Assembly: GCA_964517185.1 (NCBI GenBank)
Contig: CAZFBT010000013.1
Coordinates: forward strand, 1-14,486
DNA length: 14,486 bases
Source of the DNA: an uncultured Candidatus Saccharibacteria bacterium
GTDB lineage: Bacteria > Patescibacteriota > Minisyncoccia > Phycocordibacterales > UBA918
Direction of reading: 5' to 3'
Shown here in pieces: positions 2,061 through 10,949 of this stretch. A model generated the notes under the pieces. It was not told where the DNA came from. It did not search any database and saw only the letters and a list, made by a program, of their open reading frames with translations. Both the position numbers and the translations under genes were made by a program. Every line of letters starts with the position of its first letter. The stretch's first letter is position 1.

Positions 2061-2582
2061 ATGACACACCGAACGACAACACTCTTTTCCATCATCGGAG
2101 CCATCGTACTCTGCCTTTCACTTCTGGCGTATGGCGGTACCCTCTATCTCATGGAGACCTACAAACGCACGCTCGTCGAGAGGATGCAGGATGAGGCCCG
2201 CGCAAAGGCAAACCAAGAGTTCCTCACGGAGCTCGTCCGTCTCGTAGACACAACACAGACGCAGCGGGAAGAGCTCGAAACGCGCATCATCAATGATGTG
2301 GACGTCATTGAACTCCTCGCGCTCATCGAGACTATTGGTAGAGAGCAGGGCATTGTGCTTGCGACGGAGTCTCTCACGACTGAACCACTCAACGAGGCGT
2401 TCGAACACCTCAGGATACAGCTTGGCGCCAAGGGAAGTTATGAGGGCATCATGTACGTCCTCACCATGCTTGAAACACTCCCGTATCAGTCTGCAATCGA
2501 CTCCGTTTCTGTCACTTCAGATAGCGAGGACATGTGGACTGCCTCTATCGAGCTCATTGTCACGAAGTACGTCAAAGCATGA
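2061..2582 (+). CDS. PilO-like pilus assembly membrane protein
   Basis: In-frame ATG at 2061, 7 nt after the pilN stop. It has an N-terminal TM helix (LFSIIGAIVLCLSLLAYGG), a charged coiled-coil-like segment, then a compact C-terminal domain. This architecture and gene order match PilO; the sequence itself is not diagnostic. Confidence 0.55.
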   Translation: MTHRTTTLFSIIGAIVLCLSLLAYGGTLYLMETYKRTLVERMQDEARAKANQEFLTELVRLVDTTQTQREELETRIINDVDVIELLALIETIGREQGIVLATESLTTEPLNEAFEHLRIQLGAKGSYEGIMYVLTMLETLPYQSAIDSVSVTSDSEDMWTASIELIVTKYVKA

Positions 2583-2974
2583 GTATGAAAATCTCACTGC
2601 GCCTCCCAAATTTCCTGCAAGCAAAGAAACAAGGCTTGTCGCGTCGCCGATCTGGCTCTTTCATGTGTCCGGTTCGGGAGTGGGGTCTCGGTCTCCTCAT
2701 CAGTTCGCTCCTCTTTCTTGTGCTCGGAGGACACGCGGGATATAACTTCTATACACAATCGAATGAGTTCGGTGTGCTTCCGGAGCAAGATGAACCAGTG
2801 GTGACCTACCGTGAGGGGTCGGTCATGCGAGCGCTTGAAGTCTACGAAGAGCGTGAAGCAGAATTCATTCGATTGCGGAACGGACGCAAGGTGCAGGTTC
2901 AGTCGCTCCCGCAACAGTCTCTAGCTGAACCTAAAGACAACACGTCGCTTGCTGAGGTTCTCGAGAGTGAGTAG
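2579..2974 (+). CDS. hypothetical single-pass membrane protein, last gene of the pil operon
   Basis: ATG 2579 overlaps the stop of the preceding gene (ATGA at 2579-2582). It has a basic N-terminus (KKQGLSRRRS), one TM helix (WGLGLLISSLLFLVLGG) and an acidic C-terminal tail. I recognise no family. Confidence 0.6.
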   Translation: MSMKISLRLPNFLQAKKQGLSRRRSGSFMCPVREWGLGLLISSLLFLVLGGHAGYNFYTQSNEFGVLPEQDEPVVTYREGSVMRALEVYEEREAEFIRLRNGRKVQVQSLPQQSLAEPKDNTSLAEVLESE

Positions 2975-2986
2975 AGTAGAGAGCCT

Positions 2987-3058
2987 GTCCCCATAGTTTA
3001 ATGGATAAAACTGCGGACTTCTAAGCCGTTGATCCAGGTTCGATTCCTGGTGGGGACA
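2987..3058 (+). tRNA. tRNA-Arg (anticodon TCT)
   Basis: Hand-folded cloverleaf. Acceptor GTCCCCA/TGGGGAC, D stem GTTT/AAAC, anticodon loop CTTCTAA (TCT at 34-36, T33, A37), T arm CCAGG-TTCGATT-CCTGG, discriminator A. The 31-39 position is an A/G mismatch. CCA is not encoded. Confidence 0.88.
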
Positions 3059-3509
3059 CCGAAATCAACAACCAGCACCAGCGAGTAGCTCATCACATAG
3101 GCACCTGGGAGTATCCATTGAAGCCGCTACAGCCTTTTCGAGTGAATGAATAGTACTCTCAACATATACGATGGTACCAGCAACAATTGCAAAAATTGAA
3201 CATACTTAGACATGTTTATTCAGGCGTACCTTATTTGTATAGGGAGCTAGAATTTCTCATTCTACAAACAAAATTGTAACAGGAGCTTAAATCTGGCTAA
3301 GGTAACAGCAAAGCGTGTCAACGACATGAATGTACTTCGTGAGCACAGGAGTACATCGGTAGCCTAAGCCTACGATACACGCGTGTTGGGTGTTTTTTGC
3401 CTATACACACAGGCCCAGCATTTTGTCTCATGACACGGTACAATTAATCAACGTAGACGTACATTAATATTCGACACAATTTCGCTTGATTCAAGACCAG
3501 CCTACCTAT

Positions 3510-6500
3510 ATGAACAAGACACTCCTTGCAGTTGCACTACTGGTGACCTTCCAATGCACCGGTATGGCCCTTGCGCAAGCGCCCGAACTTGTATCTCCGA
3601 GCGAGGAAGTGAAGTCCTACTTAGTTGCAACCGTCAATGTGCATAATGTTCAGCACGTTCAGAGTGGACATCAATTTAATATCGCCTTCGACATCATGAA
3701 TCGCATCGGCACCCAAGCTGGTGTCCGGTACGGGGCACTTCTGATGAAAGATACCAAGCAAGGACCGATTATTGTTGATGCTCATCTTGAGCGAGAAACC
3801 TTAACACTCGAAGAGGGAGGCAGTGTTCGCAGAGCCTTTACCTACACAGCACCAGCGGTGCTCGGCGGGACCTTCAATCTGTATCTCATAAGCGAAGGGG
3901 AAACAGGATTGCAATATGGATTCGTCCCGTTAGGAGAAATAACTCTGGTTCCAAGTGTTGCCGGAGTTCTTGTCGATACAGAGTCATGCTATCTCACGAT
4001 CGGTGCAGAGGGAACACGCTATGAACAATCGACACGAGTTGATCTTGCGTCCAATGAGTCACTCATGAGCCATTGTACAATTGAGAACACAAGCGATGAG
4101 GCAACGAGCATCAGACCACAGGCAATTGTTCGTGAATACGGCATCTTCGGCCCACTCGCGAATCTTCTGTCGTTCCCCGCACAGGAGCCCATCACGCTTG
4201 CTTCCAAAGAAAAGCGTGACGTGTCAGTCCTTCTTCCCCTTCCTGCCGAACCGGGCAACTATATTACGACGCTCTCTTTTGGACCCGTAGGGAATGAAGT
4301 GTACCATCGTTTCGTCATACAGGGCGCGCGTGCCTCTATTGATAACGTCGTGTTCGACAAAGCTGTCTACGCCGTAGGTGAGACCGCATTACTATCAATT
4401 ACCTGGAGTTCGGCTGGAGACAGCATCGAAGGAACTCGGGCCAAGAGCGCGGTAGCAATCGCGGAGCCAAGCATCACTGTTATTGTCTCTGATGCGGGCG
4501 GGAGAATTTGCGCAGAGCCAATTTCAAATTCTATCGAACAGTATGGTTCCCCAGCCATCACGGTTCCCGTCATTATGACGCAAGATTGTATCGGCCCCAC
4601 CGCTGAGGTAATATTTGCTGACAAGGAGCTCGGTATTCTTGCGCGATCAACCTACGCGGTAAAGACAGTTAATGGAGACAAGCCGAACATCTCCTCTGCA
4701 ACTAAATCAGTAGATATTTCACCGATCAAATTTGGCATCCCGCTTGCGTTCAGCCTCGTGGGACTTCTCCTTGGGCTCGGTCTTTTCATCTATCGTGCTT
4801 ACATGCGTAAGAAGGAGAGTGTTCTCACAACACCAATAGTGGGCCTCTTCCTTCTCATCGTAGGGGCTTTCAGCCTCTCTGTTCATGATGCGAGTGCAGA
4901 CACCTTCAATCTACAGTATGGAAACGGCGCTTCGCGTAAGAATTTTACCGTTTCAGCATCTCTCGTGGATTCTGATCTCACTCCCAGCGACTTCCTACAA
5001 GTACAGGGAACCATTCAACACACGAATGGTTCGATAACCTCCTCATTCTATATTTATCTATATTACAATATAGATGGTGGTTTTGTGATGCCGCTCTATG
5101 ATCACTTTGTGCCGGCAGGTGTAAATTTCTGGACTTCTCCCTGGAACAAAATGGACATCAACACACCGCCTTTTCCTGGTAACCATACCATCAAGGTGAC
5201 AGCGGATGTCAATTCGACCGGAGTCACCCTGCCGTTTACAATTTCTGGGGCATTCTATGCTCCCTGTTCCCCAACCGTCATCAATGACTGTGTGCTTCCG
5301 AGTGCGCCTCACAATACGGCCTCAGGGATGTGTTCGGATGCAGGAACGTGCCAATATAGCTGTAACGATGGTACATGGGGCCTCTTTGGCGGGGGTAACC
5401 ACAATTTCTGTTATACTGCTGGAGGGCCCGAACTCATCATTGAGGAGATTCAAGTACATGATCCAGAAGGTGGAGGCGGTGATCCGACGGTCGAAAATTC
5501 GCCTGATGATAGCTCTCGACATGCCCAGGCTCCCTTACGAAAGGTCTGGTCTGAAATGATTGAGAACGTCGGGAAATTTTTCGCGTCGATGTTTCCTCCA
5601 CGCGCAAGCGCAGCAGTCATGGGAGACACCCTCAACCTTCAGGGATTCTTCTCGAATATCGGCGGCAATACCGGCGTTGGTTTCACGAGTGGCTTCTATT
5701 ACCAATGGGGCGGAACAGGGGGAGTCTGGACCGAGGTGCCCGGCAGCCTAGAGTCTTGGTCACCTGTTCTCCCTGGCCAGACGTACCTCCTCGATGAAAT
5801 GCTATTCACTGTCCCGCTCCAGACTGGCAGTCTCTACATCAGGTTCTGTGTAGACATTTATGACGAAGTGAATGAAGGTGCGGGCGATGGGCCATTCGCC
5901 AATTGTGTTGAGACCTCTGAGATATATGTCTCTTCTGCGCCACTCGGGAGTTGTTCATCAACCGAGCTATCGGAACTCAACGACTGGAAAAACAAAGAGT
6001 GTCCTCTGGCTTCAGGGTGCGCAAGCACCCCTATCTGCTATACGTATCCTGGAGACAAGAATCTTGTCACGAATATTGCAGGACCTACCTCTACCGATCC
6101 AGGAGTTGCGACCGAACTGTTCGCAACCGTACATAACAATGGAGAGTTGAGTTCGGGCAGTTCATTCGTGAACCTGTTCCAGGTTGCGGACGACGACCAA
6201 GGGAATGGTGCTGTGGACATCGGGACGCAAACGACGAGCCCGCTGGGAGGACTCGGGAAGGCAATCGTGAAATTTGACTACGTATTTCCTGCATCCGCAG
6301 CGGGAACGAATAAGTTCATTCGGGTCTGTGCCGATAAATCGAGCGCAAGCAGTGCTGGCGTCATCGCAGAAGCAAACGAGCTTCTGGTCGATAACTGTGG
6401 CCCGTGGAATTCAATCCTCATTAAGCCCGCCTGCTCTCCTGGAGAAGAGCTCACCTGGACTGACAGTACGACCGGGAAGACTTGTAGTGCGCTTACACCA

Positions 6501-7865
6501 CAGGGAACCAAGGGGGGGCAGAGTACCCTGAACGATACTACTGCACCTGACACAGGGACCGCACAGTTCAGTTGCAAATCGAATGGGCAATGGGAGCAGA
6601 ACCCGGAACTGGGAGCAACCTGCAATCAGGCGACGGTCATGTGCCCTGCGGGCCAAACACTGAGTTGGTCAGGCGGACAGTGCTCTGGGACGACTCAGGC
6701 AACAGCAGAAAATGGCACGTTCTCGATGAGTGACTCTGAGATTGTAACTTCGCCCGGAACAGGAGGAGCGACCTTCAAGTGTCTCACCGGTGGTACGTGG
6801 GCAGCAAGTCCCGAAGCGGTACCAGCGGCGGTCTGTGGTACGGTCTGCCCGGGAGGAGCGCTGAATTGGAACACTGGCGGAAATAGCTGCTCAGGAACGG
6901 TGGCTGTCACACTCCTCGGAAGTACTGCACCCGTAATAGACAATGTGGCAGATCCTGCGACCGGAGGAGCAACATTCCTCTGCCAGACTGACAGGACGTG
7001 GAAGCCGACACCTGAGTCGGGGACAGATAGTTGTACGATTCCAGCGACAAACCAAGCACCGATCATCACTAAAGGAAATGATTTCGTGAACATCGGATTG
7101 CCCACAGATTATATCGCGCTTGTTGGATGGAGTGCGGTCGATCCTGAATCAGGCACCCTGAATTACACATGGGTTCCGCTGAGCTGGCCTCCCGCGGGAA
7201 GCCCGGGCAGCATAAGCAACGCCTCGGTTGCGAACCCAACCTTCCAGAATCTTGCAGAGGTGGGCACGTACACATTCCAGCTGACTGTTACGGATAATCA
7301 GGGCGCGACCGACGTTGAAACCTTCACGGTCAACGTTTCGGGGACCCCACCACCTGACGGAACTATTAGCACCAATGACGCTGACAACATCGTTGATCAA
7401 GGGGATATCGTTCAGCTCACATGGGATGCATGGGACTATCCTTCTTCATGTAAGGTCGAAGGAACAAATGGTCAATTGTGGAACTATGAACCCGAGCTTA
7501 GCGGCGTATCGACACTTCCTCTCAATGCGAATACGGCCTTTGGACTCTACTGCTACGATACACAGGTCCCACCGCAATGGAAACCGATTTCCTCAGTCTT
7601 CATCACCGTCAACCCTGACGTTGACCTTTGGGTCACTCCTTCGATTGTTGGATACGGTGATGCCGCAACACTCTCATGGAACACGAACGGTAATGACCCT
7701 GCGACGTGCTCTTTCTCTGGCGGAGGTCTGAGTCCTGTAGTATCAGATGGGAACGGTTCCCAAGAAATAACAAATATTCAGGGACAGATATCAGTGAAGC
7801 TTACCTGTGGGCTGAAGAATAAGACCGTGCAGATACTCATGCGGCCGCAATCATACGAGCCGTGA
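3510..7865 (+). CDS. very large secreted/surface protein (putative adhesin) with Cys-rich modules, a PKD-like domain and Ig-like repeats
   Basis: Uninterrupted 1459-codon frame. The likely start is ATG 3510, giving MNKTLLAVALLVTFQCTGMALA|QA, a classic signal peptide. The track start at 3486 is a TTG. Domains inferred from motifs are: several CARDB-like segments (..VHNNGELSS..F.V..; IRVCADKSS...VIAEANELLVDNC); 3 x ~65-aa four-Cys modules; a PKD-like domain (YTWVPLS...GTYTFQLTVTDNQGATDVETFTVNV); and two C-terminal Ig-like repeats (..ATLSWNT..C..). An internal TM pair lies at 4731-4898. Confidence 0.85.
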   Translation: MNKTLLAVALLVTFQCTGMALAQAPELVSPSEEVKSYLVATVNVHNVQHVQSGHQFNIAFDIMNRIGTQAGVRYGALLMKDTKQGPIIVDAHLERETLTLEEGGSVRRAFTYTAPAVLGGTFNLYLISEGETGLQYGFVPLGEITLVPSVAGVLVDTESCYLTIGAEGTRYEQSTRVDLASNESLMSHCTIENTSDEATSIRPQAIVREYGIFGPLANLLSFPAQEPITLASKEKRDVSVLLPLPAEPGNYITTLSFGPVGNEVYHRFVIQGARASIDNVVFDKAVYAVGETALLSITWSSAGDSIEGTRAKSAVAIAEPSITVIVSDAGGRICAEPISNSIEQYGSPAITVPVIMTQDCIGPTAEVIFADKELGILARSTYAVKTVNGDKPNISSATKSVDISPIKFGIPLAFSLVGLLLGLGLFIYRAYMRKKESVLTTPIVGLFLLIVGAFSLSVHDASADTFNLQYGNGASRKNFTVSASLVDSDLTPSDFLQVQGTIQHTNGSITSSFYIYLYYNIDGGFVMPLYDHFVPAGVNFWTSPWNKMDINTPPFPGNHTIKVTADVNSTGVTLPFTISGAFYAPCSPTVINDCVLPSAPHNTASGMCSDAGTCQYSCNDGTWGLFGGGNHNFCYTAGGPELIIEEIQVHDPEGGGGDPTVENSPDDSSRHAQAPLRKVWSEMIENVGKFFASMFPPRASAAVMGDTLNLQGFFSNIGGNTGVGFTSGFYYQWGGTGGVWTEVPGSLESWSPVLPGQTYLLDEMLFTVPLQTGSLYIRFCVDIYDEVNEGAGDGPFANCVETSEIYVSSAPLGSCSSTELSELNDWKNKECPLASGCASTPICYTYPGDKNLVTNIAGPTSTDPGVATELFATVHNNGELSSGSSFVNLFQVADDDQGNGAVDIGTQTTSPLGGLGKAIVKFDYVFPASAAGTNKFIRVCADKSSASSAGVIAEANELLVDNCGPWNSILIKPACSPGEELTWTDSTTGKTCSALTPQGTKGGQSTLNDTTAPDTGTAQFSCKSNGQWEQNPELGATCNQATVMCPAGQTLSWSGGQCSGTTQATAENGTFSMSDSEIVTSPGTGGATFKCLTGGTWAASPEAVPAAVCGTVCPGGALNWNTGGNSCSGTVAVTLLGSTAPVIDNVADPATGGATFLCQTDRTWKPTPESGTDSCTIPATNQAPIITKGNDFVNIGLPTDYIALVGWSAVDPESGTLNYTWVPLSWPPAGSPGSISNASVANPTFQNLAEVGTYTFQLTVTDNQGATDVETFTVNVSGTPPPDGTISTNDADNIVDQGDIVQLTWDAWDYPSSCKVEGTNGQLWNYEPELSGVSTLPLNANTAFGLYCYDTQVPPQWKPISSVFITVNPDVDLWVTPSIVGYGDAATLSWNTNGNDPATCSFSGGGLSPVVSDGNGSQEITNIQGQISVKLTCGLKNKTVQILMRPQSYEP
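4731..4898 (+). other. internal TM helix, basic loop and signal-peptide-like TM segment inside the giant ORF
   Basis: FGIPLAFSLVGLLLGLGLFIY (4731-4793), then RAY-MRKKES with an in-frame ATG at 4803, then VLTTPIVGLFLLIVGAFSLSVHDASA|DT. The AXA-type motif ends at 4898. Confidence 0.7.
6432..7034 (+). repeat. three tandem ~63-65-aa four-cysteine modules (coding repeat within the giant ORF)
   Basis: R1 is 6432-6623, R2 is 6642-6836, R3 is 6846-7034. Each follows C-P/S-x-G-x(1-2)-L-x-W-x(4-8)-C-S...(T/P)-x-T-G-(G/T)-A-x-F-x-C-x(3-4)-W...C. Examples: CPAGQTLSWSGGQCSG...GTGGATFKCLTGGTWAA...C and CPGGALNWNTGGNSCSG...ATGGATFLCQTDRTWKP...C. Confidence 0.85.
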
Positions 7866-7879
7866 TGTGGTAGGAAGTG

Positions 7880-7908
7880 AGCGGCCAGCGCAGCTGGCCG
7901 CTTTCTGT
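7880..7908 (+). terminator. rho-independent terminator after the giant ORF, back-to-back with the tRNA-Val 3' end
   Basis: Perfect 10-bp GC-rich stem AGCGGCCAGC / GCTGGCCGCT with loop GCA, followed by TTCTGT. It starts 15 nt after the stop codon and abuts the 3' end of the minus-strand tRNA. Confidence 0.75.
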
Positions 7909-7980
7909 GGGCGGTGAGGGACTTGAACCCCCGACCCTCTCAGTGTAAATGAGTTGCTCTACCAACTGAGCTAACCGCCC
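7908..7980 (-). tRNA. tRNA-Val (anticodon TAC)
   Basis: The reverse complement folds as GGGCGGT-TA-GCTC-AGTTGGTA-GAGC-A-ACTCA-TTTACAC-TGAGA-GGGTC-GGGGG-TTCAAGT-CCCTC-ACCGCCC-A. That is 73 nt with all stems paired and one G-U in the T stem. Confidence 0.93.
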
Positions 7981-8031
7981 CTCACATGGACCGGACCATA
8001 GTACCGTCTTTCATGTTTATTTCAATATGCG

Positions 8032-8037
8032 TATACT
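8032..8037 (+). promoter_or_regulatory. possible -10 box (TATACT) for acyP, positioned for a leaderless or near-leaderless transcript
   Basis: TATACT ends 6 nt before the ATG at 8044. The -35 is weak (TTTCAT at 8009-8014, 17-nt spacer). No Shine-Dalgarno sequence lies in between. Confidence 0.35.
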
Positions 8038-8043
8038 CTCACC

Positions 8044-8319
8044 ATGTTCACCGAGGTCCACTGCATCGTGACGGGGAAGGTACAGCGGGTCGGCTACCGC
8101 GATTTCATCGAGCGCGCTGCGAAAGAATGCAAGCTGACAGGATGGGTGAAGAACCGCCCGGATGGTGCCGTTGAAGTGCTCTTTCAGGGGTACCCTGATG
8201 ACCTGAAGCGAGCGCTTGAAGCGCTCCAGGAGGGCTCGGTCCTCGCACGCGTCGATGGCCTTGCCACGAACTGGCGCACCCCCGAGAAACAATTCGATGA
8301 TTTCAAGGTTATAGCCTGA
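8044..8319 (+). CDS. acyP: acylphosphatase
   Basis: 91 aa. It carries V.GKVQRVGYRDF and GWVKNRPDGAVEV, the two signature motifs of acylphosphatases (V.G.VQGVGFR and GWV.N..DG.VE), at the typical size. Confidence 0.85.
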   Translation: MFTEVHCIVTGKVQRVGYRDFIERAAKECKLTGWVKNRPDGAVEVLFQGYPDDLKRALEALQEGSVLARVDGLATNWRTPEKQFDDFKVIA

Positions 8320-8320
8320 C

Positions 8321-9013
8321 ATGGAGACAGGTCATACGCACAGTATCAAATGTGTCGGGTTCATCATGGATGGTAATCGGCGGTGGGCGAGGGCTCGAGG
8401 TCTTTCACCTGTTGAGGGTCACGAAGCGGGGTTCAGAGTGTTGGAGGATATTGTCCAGGTGGTACATCGTGCGCACATTCCGCACCTCGTGTGCTATGCG
8501 TTCTCGACCGAGAACTGGAAACGTGATGGACGAGAGGTTGCCTACCTCATGGAGCTCTTTCAGGAACAGCTGAAGCGCATGCACGACGCGACCAATGAGG
8601 ACCGCATGCGCATTAGGGTTGTGGGGAGGATGAGTGATTTCACTGAGGATATTCAGCTGTCTGTGGCAGAGCTGGTTGCAAAAACCGAGCGCTATACAAA
8701 TGAGACGACGATTTGGATCGCGCTCTCCTATGGAGGACGTGCAGAGATCATCGATGCGGCGAATCGAGCGATTGCATTGGGTGAGAAGGTCGATGAGGAC
8801 TCATTCTCACAGTTGCTCTACACGAAGGGTATGCCCGACCCCGACCTCATCATCCGCACCGGTGGCGAAAAGCGACTCTCGAATTTCCTGCCGTGGCAAG
8901 GCGTATACAGCGAGCTCTTCTTCACCGAGACGCTCTGGCCCGACTTTGGGGAAGCAGAGTTTCAGAGTATCCTTGAAGCGTATGGAACAAGAGAACGGCG
9001 CAGGGGCACATAG
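8321..9013 (+). CDS. uppS: undecaprenyl-diphosphate synthase (cis-prenyltransferase)
   Basis: 230 aa. It has GFIMDGNRRWA, FSTENW.R and IRTGGEKRLSNFLPWQ..YSELFF, the hallmark UppS motifs. The start is 1 nt after the acyP stop. Confidence 0.93.
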   Translation: METGHTHSIKCVGFIMDGNRRWARARGLSPVEGHEAGFRVLEDIVQVVHRAHIPHLVCYAFSTENWKRDGREVAYLMELFQEQLKRMHDATNEDRMRIRVVGRMSDFTEDIQLSVAELVAKTERYTNETTIWIALSYGGRAEIIDAANRAIALGEKVDEDSFSQLLYTKGMPDPDLIIRTGGEKRLSNFLPWQGVYSELFFTETLWPDFGEAEFQSILEAYGTRERRRGT

Positions 9014-9740
9014 CGATATCGAGGTCCTCTACGAGGATGATGATGTCATCGTCATCAATAAACCCGCGGGCATCATGGTGCACGAGGACGGGCGGAGCGA
9101 AGGGCCGACGGTCGTTGACTGGTTCCTTGCCCGCGCGCCCGGGGCGCGCGGGGTCGGCGAACCAGGCTATGCGCAGGATGGAACGCTACTCGACCGCTCT
9201 GGGGTCGTACACCGGCTCGATAGAGAAACGTCTGGTGTACTCATTCTTGCAAAGACACAGCCCGCGTTTATTCACCTCAAGGGGCAGTTCCATGGCCGCC
9301 GCGTGCGCAAAGAGTATCGAGCCTTCGTGTACGGAACTATGAAGGAACAGTGGGGGACCATCGACCGCCCTATCGGGCGGAGCGGCCGCAATCCGAAGCT
9401 CCGGTCAGCCGAGCGCGGTGCTCAGGGCGTCCTTCGTCCCGCAGTGACCGACTGGGAGCGCATCGGTCAATCGGGCACGTTCGCGTATCTCAAGCTCATT
9501 CCAAAGACCGGCCGGACACACCAGCTCCGCGTTCACCTCAAGGCTATCGGACGTCCCATCCTGGGAGACACACTCTATGCGCCAGGGGAATTGCTTGCAA
9601 ACGAAAGCCTTGGCCTCACGCGGCTCGCGCTCCATGCGTACAGTCTCACGCTCACCCTTGAGGATGGGATTGAACGCACATTCATTGCGCCGCTTCCCGA
9701 AGATTTCGAGAACGCGCGCCGCGCCCTTGCGAGCACATAA
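8982..9740 (+). CDS. RluA-family 23S rRNA/tRNA pseudouridine synthase (no S4 domain)
   Basis: It has VLYEDDDVIVINKPAGIMVH, the catalytic-Asp motif HRLDRETSGVLILAK, and the GRTHQLRVHL motif. The first in-frame ATG compatible with the domain is 8982, which overlaps the uppS 3' end by 32 nt. The track ORF start at 8634 lies inside uppS in another frame. Confidence 0.88.
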   Translation: MEQENGAGAHSDIEVLYEDDDVIVINKPAGIMVHEDGRSEGPTVVDWFLARAPGARGVGEPGYAQDGTLLDRSGVVHRLDRETSGVLILAKTQPAFIHLKGQFHGRRVRKEYRAFVYGTMKEQWGTIDRPIGRSGRNPKLRSAERGAQGVLRPAVTDWERIGQSGTFAYLKLIPKTGRTHQLRVHLKAIGRPILGDTLYAPGELLANESLGLTRLALHAYSLTLTLEDGIERTFIAPLPEDFENARRALAST

Positions 9741-9827
9741 TTGCCGTGTTAGAGTACAGCACGCTTTTCGTCAGGCGCTTTTTTATTCCACTGCGCCTCA
9801 TACCGAAGCCCAAGAAACACTATTCAT

Positions 9828-10451
9828 ATGCATACGATTTCAGCGGGGATAGCTGTCTCCCCGGTCAACATGGAAGACCGCAAGAACCTTGGCCTCAGGG
9901 CAGGGGATACAGTGCGTGTTCACCAGAAGATCAAGGACGAGAAGAATAAGTACCGCATCCAAGTCTTCGAGGGTACCGTCTTAGCGAGGAAGCACGGCGC
10001 AGAGGCCGGGGCAACATTCACCGTCCGCAAAGTCGTCGACGGCATCGGTGTTGAGAAGATATTCCCGCTCTATTCTCCGCTCATCGACAAGATAGAGATC
10101 ATTCGTCGAAGTGATGTGCGTCGGGCAAAGCTCTACTACATCCGCGAGAAGGTAGCGCGCGAGATCAAGCGGCAGATGCGTCGTATGCGACTCATGGACA
10201 TAGCATCTGAATCGGAGACCGAAGCGCAGGCGCGTGCCGCCGAAGAGGCAGCACGAGTGGCAGCCGAAGCCAAGGCCGCCGAAGAAGCCAAGGCTGCAGA
10301 GGAAGCGCGCCTCAAGGCAGAGGCAGAAGCGAAGGCTGCGGAAGAGGCGAAGGCAGCAGAAGCATCAGCCCCAGCCCCCGAGCCAGCAGCAGAGGAAGTC
10401 GCTTCGGAGGCACCAGTACCGGAAGCAGCTCCGGAAGAAGAGAAGAAATAA
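9828..10451 (+). CDS. rplS: 50S ribosomal protein L19 with a ~86-aa Ala/Glu/Lys/Pro-rich C-terminal extension
   Basis: The core GDTVRVH.KI.....[15 protein letters not shown]...TFTVRK...[24 protein letters not shown] matches L19. The start at ATG 9828 gives the usual ~25 aa before GDTV; an alternative ATG is at 9870. The tail from ~10191 reads [10 protein letters not shown]...APEEEKK. Confidence 0.9.
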
Positions 10452-10469
10452 ATCGGAATGTGAAGCATA

Positions 10470-10513
10470 CCGCGCGCCTTTACCATCAGGCAGAGGCGTG
10501 CGGTTTCGTTTTT
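10470..10513 (+). terminator. rho-independent terminator after rplS
   Basis: 10-bp stem CCGCGCGCCT / AGGCGTGCGG (one G-U) with a 14-nt loop, followed by TTTCGTTTTT. Confidence 0.7.
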
Positions 10514-10515
10514 CA

Positions 10516-10543
10516 TTGCAAAAATGCTAAAAATCCTTAGAAT
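10516..10543 (+). promoter_or_regulatory. sigma70-type promoter for tRNA-Leu
   Basis: TTGCAA (10516-10521), a 16-nt spacer, then TAGAAT (10538-10543). The tRNA starts at 10576. A 9-bp leader hairpin GTCACTCAA/TTGAGTGAC (10548-10573) lies in between. Confidence 0.5.
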
Positions 10544-10575
10544 GAGGGTCACTCAATTGTTATGTTGAGTGACTT

Positions 10576-10660
10576 GCCCAGGTGGCGAAACTTGGCAGAC
10601 GCACTACCTTGAGGTGGTAGCGCCCGTAAGGGCGTGCTGGTTCAAATCCAGTCCTGGGCA
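10576..10660 (+). tRNA. tRNA-Leu (anticodon GAG), class II with long variable arm
   Basis: Acceptor GCCCAGG/CCTGGGC. Anticodon arm CTACC-TTGAGGT-GGTAG. Variable arm CGCCC-GTAA-GGGCG. T arm GCTGG-TTCAAAT-CCAGT. Discriminator A. 85 nt. Confidence 0.93.
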
Positions 10661-10673
10661 CAAACGCGTCATG

Positions 10674-10698
10674 AAACCGAGACCTGCGTCTCGGTTTT
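10674..10698 (+). terminator. hairpin plus T-run after tRNA-Leu (A/T-flanked, potentially bidirectional); also the first hairpin of structured unit 1
   Basis: AAACCGAGAC-CTGC-GTCTCGGTTT followed by T. It starts 14 nt after the tRNA-Leu 3' end. Confidence 0.6.
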
Positions 10699-10702
10699 AG
10701 CG

Positions 10703-10759
10703 TTTGTGAGCCGGAGCCATGTTTTCGCTATACCTAATGCGAAAACGGGCGAGGCCGGG
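10703..10759. repeat. stem-loop module copy 1 (conserved flanks, covarying 8-bp stem, CCTAAT loop)
   Basis: TTTGTGAGCCGGAGC-c-AT-[GTTTTCGC]-tataCCTAAT-[GCGAAAAC]-gg-GCGAGGCCGGG. The paralogous copy is at 10950-11005. Confidence 0.85.
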
Positions 10760-10949
10760 TGAGACAGTCTGGGGGACTGTCGCAAGACTCATTGTGGATC
10801 TTTGCAAGTGAAGCGAAGCAAAGAGCCCAATGAGTGGACAGTGTCTGTAAGACGGGAAGTGCTTAGCGGTTTGGAGCAAAGCGAACAAACCACTTAGCAA
10901 CTTGACCCCAACCGCAAAAACGACCTGAACTGCTTCAGGCCGTTTCGCT

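Follow-up and report, generated by a model that had tools for sequence, protein, structure and literature searches.

This study concerns a single gene in a 14,486-nucleotide stretch of DNA (contig CAZFBT010000013.1 of assembly GCA_964517185.1, from an uncultured Candidatus Saccharibacteria bacterium; the whole stretch is called the window here), which encodes a surface protein of 1451 residues. The protein consists of an extracytoplasmic part (A) closed by a transmembrane (TM) helix, a short basic loop, a second hydrophobic segment ending in an A-x-A motif, and a long second extracytoplasmic part (B). Together, the helix, loop and second segment form a hairpin between the two parts. The A domain defines a previously undescribed protein family whose members are mostly fused. 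Some relatives, however, encode A and B as two adjacent genes, and there the signal peptide at the N-terminus of B is a homologue of the internal segment. Judged from sequence comparison, the protein is probably a natural two-product precursor that is cut by signal peptidase I after A463. The features of the gene are as follows, with coordinates in the window and residues numbered from the ATG at 3510.

3510..7865, + strand: whole A-hairpin-B precursor gene, 1451 aa, stop included; a single frame without internal stop
3510..3581, + strand: N-terminal signal peptide of A, residues 1-24, ending ..ALAQA|PE
3582..4730, + strand: A ectodomain, about 383 aa, all-beta; predicted from its model to hold 3-4 tandem Ig/FN3-like beta-sandwiches and an S/T-rich linker
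4731..4793, + strand: TM1, the stop-transfer anchor of A, residues 408-428, FGIPLAFSLVGLLLGLGLFIY
4794..4820, + strand: cytoplasmic loop RAYMRKKES, residues 429-437, net charge +3, which is also the n-region of the internal signal peptide
4821..4877, + strand: h-region of the internal signal peptide, residues 438-456, a 19-residue hydrophobic stretch, VLTTPIVGLFLLIVGAFSL
4878..4898, + strand: c-region SVHDASA, residues 457-463, with the predicted signal peptidase I site after A463 (A461-S-A463)
4899..5243, + strand: B1, the first and family-conserved domain of B, residues 464-578, an eight-strand beta-sandwich starting DTF
5244..7862, + strand: distal variable part of B, with a CARDB domain at 6066-6344 and a K319L-like PKD domain at 7086-7337

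The frame runs continuously from 3486 or 3510 to 7865 on the forward strand without a stop or a change of frame, and the precursor matches its own genome at 100% (open frame of 1465 aa). An earlier note on this DNA had placed TM1, the loop, an ATG at 4803, the hydrophobic segment and the ASA site, all at positions borne out by the translation, and its observation that no stop codon separates the halves is confirmed by the single open frame. Its figure of about 990 residues after ASA was right in extent, the exact number being 988. B begins at D464 (DTFNLQYG), base 4899, and the in-frame ATG at 4803 is M432 within the loop. The internal signal segment starts at residue 429 of 1451 and hence is not N-terminal, a position that it has only in the split relatives. 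If cleavage at A463|D464 occurs, the expected semi-tryptic peptide is DTFNLQYGNGASR.

The internal segment is conserved across the family. When the junctions of the 130 fused representatives described below were aligned with L-INS-i, all being taken without selection, position -1 is Ala in 127, and position -3 is A in 86, V in 31, S in 4, T in 4, and I in 3. The residues after the site are also conserved, with D at +1 in 83, T (104) or S (16) at +2, and an aromatic or beta-branched residue at +3. Of 142 detected hairpins, 121 have the pattern [AV]xA after the second segment and 20 have it after TM1; it is found at 91 of 122 N-terminal signal peptides of the same proteins and in 25% of random 24-aa windows, so the combination of hairpin and A-x-A site exceeds chance expectation. 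The median loop of the family is 11 aa long and carries a net charge of +3, with 90% of loops at +2 or above, and this positive charge fits the positive-inside rule. The median apolar stretch is 18 residues in the second segment (interquartile range 16-20), 18 in the N-terminal signal peptides, and 20 in TM1; the paired Wilcoxon p value for second segment against TM1 is 1e-7, which is overstated because the sequences are related. The genome has a type I signal peptidase gene (PF10502, Peptidase_S26, 151 bits, G000:C51). Two other kinds of processing signal were considered and rejected. There is no conserved LPXTG-, PEP- or PGF-type motif before TM1 to indicate a sortase, exosortase or archaeosortase signal: among the 25 residues preceding TM1 in 137 members, LPxT[GASN] was found in none and LPxxG in two. 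The genome does hold two sortase genes. A lipoprotein signal was rejected since residues 438-470 contain no Cys and the N-terminal ..TFQC.. has Q at -1.

The size of the family is apparent from a HMMER search with residues 1-463 as query that covered all of 1.84 billion representative proteins. It returned 1144 clusters with E <= 1e-3, and 449 passed the stricter limit of E <= 1e-30. The layouts of the best 150 of the 1144 clusters were inspected: 130 are fused in the order A, TM, loop, signal, and B, 19 are A-only proteins of 414-474 aa that end soon after TM1, and one is a fragment. The fused representatives stand for clusters of no more than 50% identity. B is far from uniform in this family, ranging from about 150 to 1400 residues, and beyond B1 the B of the window resembles only that of P0003 among the 150 best representatives. 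P0003 is the sister of the window protein (38% identity, support 99), and since it is fused and shares B, the fused state is old in the lineage of the window. Some chains have more than two units, such as P0009 (A-hairpin-A-TM) and P0023 (A-hairpin-A-hairpin-B). In an even sample of the phylum (401 genomes, 320 genera), the A domain has a patchy spread, occurring in 21 of the genomes and 14 of the genera. A distant clade retains TM1, the basic loop, the second segment, and the A-x-A site, while the D-T-F that follows is replaced by (N/S)-G-I. Neither a word-indexed homologue search with residues 1-520, which returned nothing but the query, nor a related-loci search with a single A protein, which gave no match, recovered the family.

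Split forms were found by a six-frame search of 40 related genomes, after which the junctions were read out. The earlier note had proposed comparing orthologues for split and fused versions, and both states are indeed present within the same genus. Fused forms with the hairpin within one frame occur in G008 (1464 aa), G006, G013, and G029, the last of which has two tandem fused paralogues of 1541 and 1435 aa (L014, G029:C2, 2259-11281). In G020, A ends ..MRGEKVPHQ at one in-frame TAA and B begins five codons on, with a signal peptide ending GEAKA|ITF. In G001 and G018, A closes with two stops and B lies in a different frame, its signal peptide ending DVFA|AG or DASA|AG. Both states can be found side by side, as in G008 (L013, G008:C7:42000-53494, 2110-10856), where a split pair of 468 aa and 987 aa separated by TAA-ct-ATG is directly 5' of the fused 1464-aa copy. 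When the split pair of G020 is compared to the fused proteins of G006 and G013, homology can be recognised in TM1, in the loop (R-x-x-M-x-G-D/E), and in the second hydrophobic segment (..LKSLI.T....GGVGEA.A); the internal segment of the fused proteins thus corresponds to a true signal peptide found elsewhere at an N-terminus. Further split pairs occur in G363 and G348 of the phylum sample.

One of the options in the earlier note was that two ancestral genes, one for an anchored and one for a secreted protein, had fused. The relatives with adjacent A and B genes, B starting with a homologous signal peptide, support this directly. It is not a fusion event private to this lineage, however, as the fused layout is the majority layout of a large and old family. 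On a FastTree phylogeny of 149 A domains, 20 of them labelled as ending after A, the split label requires at least 14 changes, of which at least seven are forced by well-supported branches (the mean after shuffling of labels is 19.1). Interconversion of split and fused forms is therefore frequent; the tree is unrooted and so counts fusion and fission alike, the two not being distinguishable on it.

Several observations on these loci deserve mention in their own right. The tandem arrays in G008 and G029 may be a substrate for A-A-B chains such as those of P0009 and P0023. The split pair of G020 (L016, G020:C2, 2780-8393) lies just 3' of secY (PF00344, E 1e-100), and the same 437-aa frame with ten TM segments is found beside the pair of G018 (L018, G018:C2, 6677-11142). 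Genomic position is not conserved, since the copy in the window follows a pilM-pilN cluster and the pair of G020 follows secY. In G013 (L019, G013:C91, 1065-3541, - strand), a 381-aa A frame and a 507-aa frame with TM1, loop, signal, and B overlap in different frames. This points to a frameshift within A or to a mistake in its assembly, and in both cases the break precedes the hairpin. In two genomes of a distant clade in the phylum sample, G278 (L025, G278:C1, ~2820-2870) and G199 (L032, G199:C1, ~2475-2520), an A-only gene is followed by a terminator-like hairpin. The hairpin is GC-rich (AAATCCCGGC..GCCGGGATTT), resembles an intrinsic terminator, and is directly 3' of A, with no B gene following on that strand. 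As these A genes have no B, free-standing A proteins exist.

Structure models were obtained for both sides of the junction. AlphaFold2 with an alignment of 22 sequences gives an N-terminal helix (4-17) with low confidence after it, an all-beta A ectodomain with a predicted local distance difference test (pLDDT) score of about 90, and then two helices. A second model covering residues 394-610 (66 sequences) has TM1 as a 23-residue helix (412-434), and the internal segment as a 15-residue helix (441-455) followed by a seven-residue coil. B1 is an eight-strand sandwich (463-578, pLDDT about 90) whose first strand begins at the predicted cleavage site. Foldseek matched A only to multi-domain Ig/FnIII/MG arrays (alpha-2-macroglobulin family, RbmA, C5a peptidase) and the hairpin with B1 weakly to generic FnIII/MG/CARDB-like structures; neither search gave a functional lead. 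The A profile had no meaningful match among PDB sequences (E about 0.6), and the first 850 residues of the protein, A and B1 included, are matched by no model in Pfam or NCBIfam. Further downstream, the CARDB domain (PF07705) scored 27.1 against a Pfam cut-off of 22.7, and the K319L-like PKD domain (PF22352) scored 51 against a cut-off of 27.

Taken together, these features are explained most economically by a self-resolving precursor of two products, for which the following course is proposed. The N-terminal signal peptide would start Sec export of the A ectodomain, TM1 would halt transfer, and the short basic loop would remain cytoplasmic. The internal segment, homologous to the signal peptide of a separate B, would then re-initiate export, so that B is threaded outside, and signal peptidase I would most likely cleave A463|D464. 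The products would be A, held in the membrane by a C-terminal two-helix hairpin, and a free B beginning DTF, probably attached to A through B1; for this same pair of proteins, relatives use two genes. The earlier note had offered insertion as a helical hairpin with cleavage after ASA as another of its options, and this is favoured by the near-invariant -1 Ala, the allowed residues at -3, the positive loop, the signal peptide length of the h-region in the family as a whole, and the signal peptidase I gene; it is from the conservation that we infer the cleavage itself.

Four points weigh against cleavage or against the evidence for it. First, the query of the family scan included the hairpin, which slightly favours fused matches. 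Second, D-T-F after the site is conserved more strongly than signal peptidase I requires, and could reflect folding of B1 or another recognition step. Third, the protein sequence of B has no hydrophobic C-terminus or C-terminal anchor, so cleavage would release B unless it docks on A as predicted. Fourth, the internal apolar stretch of the window protein is 22 residues, at the long end of a family with a median of 18, and long h-regions are a characteristic of uncleaved signal anchors (PMC2120157). The last two of these points are also what recommends the main rival, an uncut two-TM protein: a single chain with both large domains outside, in which the second helix is kept for good as a signal anchor and ties B to the membrane. 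For a B with no other anchor, staying attached makes sense, and AlphaFold gives both segments as helices. A retained TM helix, however, needs neither a near-invariant Ala at -1 nor a small or aliphatic residue at -3 across 130 clusters. Moreover, in the split relatives this segment stands at the N-terminus and is a signal peptide, and the length of the h-region in the family agrees with signal peptides rather than with TM1. An uncut protein deserves to be taken seriously, but we consider it distinctly less probable than a cleaved one.

Internal initiation at the ATG at 4803, also proposed in the earlier note, would produce B with its signal peptide independently, alongside or instead of the full chain. 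The ATG is exactly at the start of the n-region, and a Met is kept in the loop of several fused relatives in the same genus. The missing Shine-Dalgarno sequence before 4803 is uninformative: no GGAGG-like sequence occurs in the 30 bases upstream of the starts at 417, 1517, 2061, 2579, 3510, 8321, 9828, or 11814, and arguments from ribosome-binding sites about starts consequently fail in this organism. As a feature of the family, however, such a start does not hold up. Met is present in 22 of 142 loops, approximately what chance would give for an 11-residue loop, and is absent from that of the closest relative, P0003. In addition, internal initiation leaves the absence of the stop codon in most of the family unexplained, and we regard it as improbable. 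Least probable is that two ordinary genes only look like one because a sequencing or assembly error conceals the stop codon or frameshift that separates them; the assembly is of metagenome type (110 contigs), but the same in-frame junction recurs in 130 independent clusters and several genomes of the genus and phylum, which makes independent errors at the same place implausible.

The organism is of the Candidate Phyla Radiation (CPR/Patescibacteria) kind, in keeping with its genome of 0.9 Mb and with its UppS, whose matches are all distant and the best of which, at 51%, is in a Candidatus Parcubacteria metagenome-assembled genome. The precursor gene is on contig 13 (G000:C13), where its 5' neighbours are pilM, a pilN-like gene, and two small genes, and its 3' neighbours are uppS, a pseudouridine synthase gene, and rplS. 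A genome-wide screen for hairpins found one more isolated case, an 840-aa frame truncated where its contig begins (C10:2-2521, +). The protein has, in order, a signal peptide, an ectodomain of about 150 aa, a TM helix, the loop SKYTR, a second segment ending PNAEA|GTYA, and about 620 further residues. The A-domain profile finds no match in this protein, and the design thus extends beyond a single family.

A broader proposal joins these observations, and the case for it seems to us evenly balanced. CPR bacteria may routinely use signal peptidase I to process polyproteins, with the stop codon between an anchored and an exported gene being lost and regained harmlessly, because a TM anchor and the next signal peptide form a self-resolving hairpin. 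A-B would then be a surface structure of two components in a 1:1 ratio: an anchored Ig-like stalk (A) and a variable distal part (B) docked through B1, made in equal amounts from one chain. The rule would then also account for the A-A-B chains and, within this genome, for unrelated fusions. If cleavage is confirmed, gene boundaries in tiny genomes would be fluid at the level of protein export, 'giant' surface open reading frames of CPR bacteria could be annotated as several mature proteins by a simple rule, and anchor A with variable B would be a tractable pair for the host-contact surface of episymbiotic CPR bacteria. What is new here is a family, more than 1000 clusters in size, that is usually fused and has toggled many times between one gene and two. 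For annotators and topology predictors, it is a caution against treating such proteins as plain two-TM proteins or as frameshift errors.

The internal segment can be compared with several known systems. Like an ordinary Sec/signal peptidase I signal peptide of a monoderm bacterium, it has a basic n-region, an h-region of about 18 residues at the family median (22 in the window protein), a polar c-region, A or V at -3, and A at -1; it differs in lying 437 residues inside the protein, after a TM anchor. The S-layers of Sulfolobales resemble the proposed arrangement of the products, as SlaB and SlaA are an anchored stalk and a large outer partner encoded adjacently, but they are not fused and the analogy is one of layout only. 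Searches of the literature turned up no account of CPR bacteria with polyproteins or internal signal peptides, and to our knowledge polyproteins resolved by signal peptidase are almost unknown in cellular bacteria, while they are textbook knowledge for enveloped viruses. The viral glycoprotein polyproteins (flavivirus C-prM-E, bunyavirus Gn-Gc, and alphavirus E2-6K-E1) are established examples of alternating stop-transfer anchors and internal signals. Their ectodomains come to lie beyond the membrane, host signal peptidase cuts after the internal signal, and the upstream product keeps the hairpin. They belong to viral genomes and the eukaryotic endoplasmic reticulum, whereas A-B is a cellular gene family of CPR bacteria with predicted cleavage, and there is no relation in sequence or fold beyond generic Ig-like domains. 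A bacterial counterpart is FbcH of Bradyrhizobium japonicum, a cytochrome b-c1 precursor that was reportedly found by Thony-Meyer and colleagues, around 1989-1991, to be separated into its products at the signal peptide that cytochrome c1 keeps inside the chain. Like A-B, it is a single bacterial open reading frame whose downstream half has its own internal signal peptide and whose products are separately encoded elsewhere; it is, however, an isolated case from a respiratory membrane complex, while A-B represents a surface family of more than 1000 clusters that has switched repeatedly between one gene and two.

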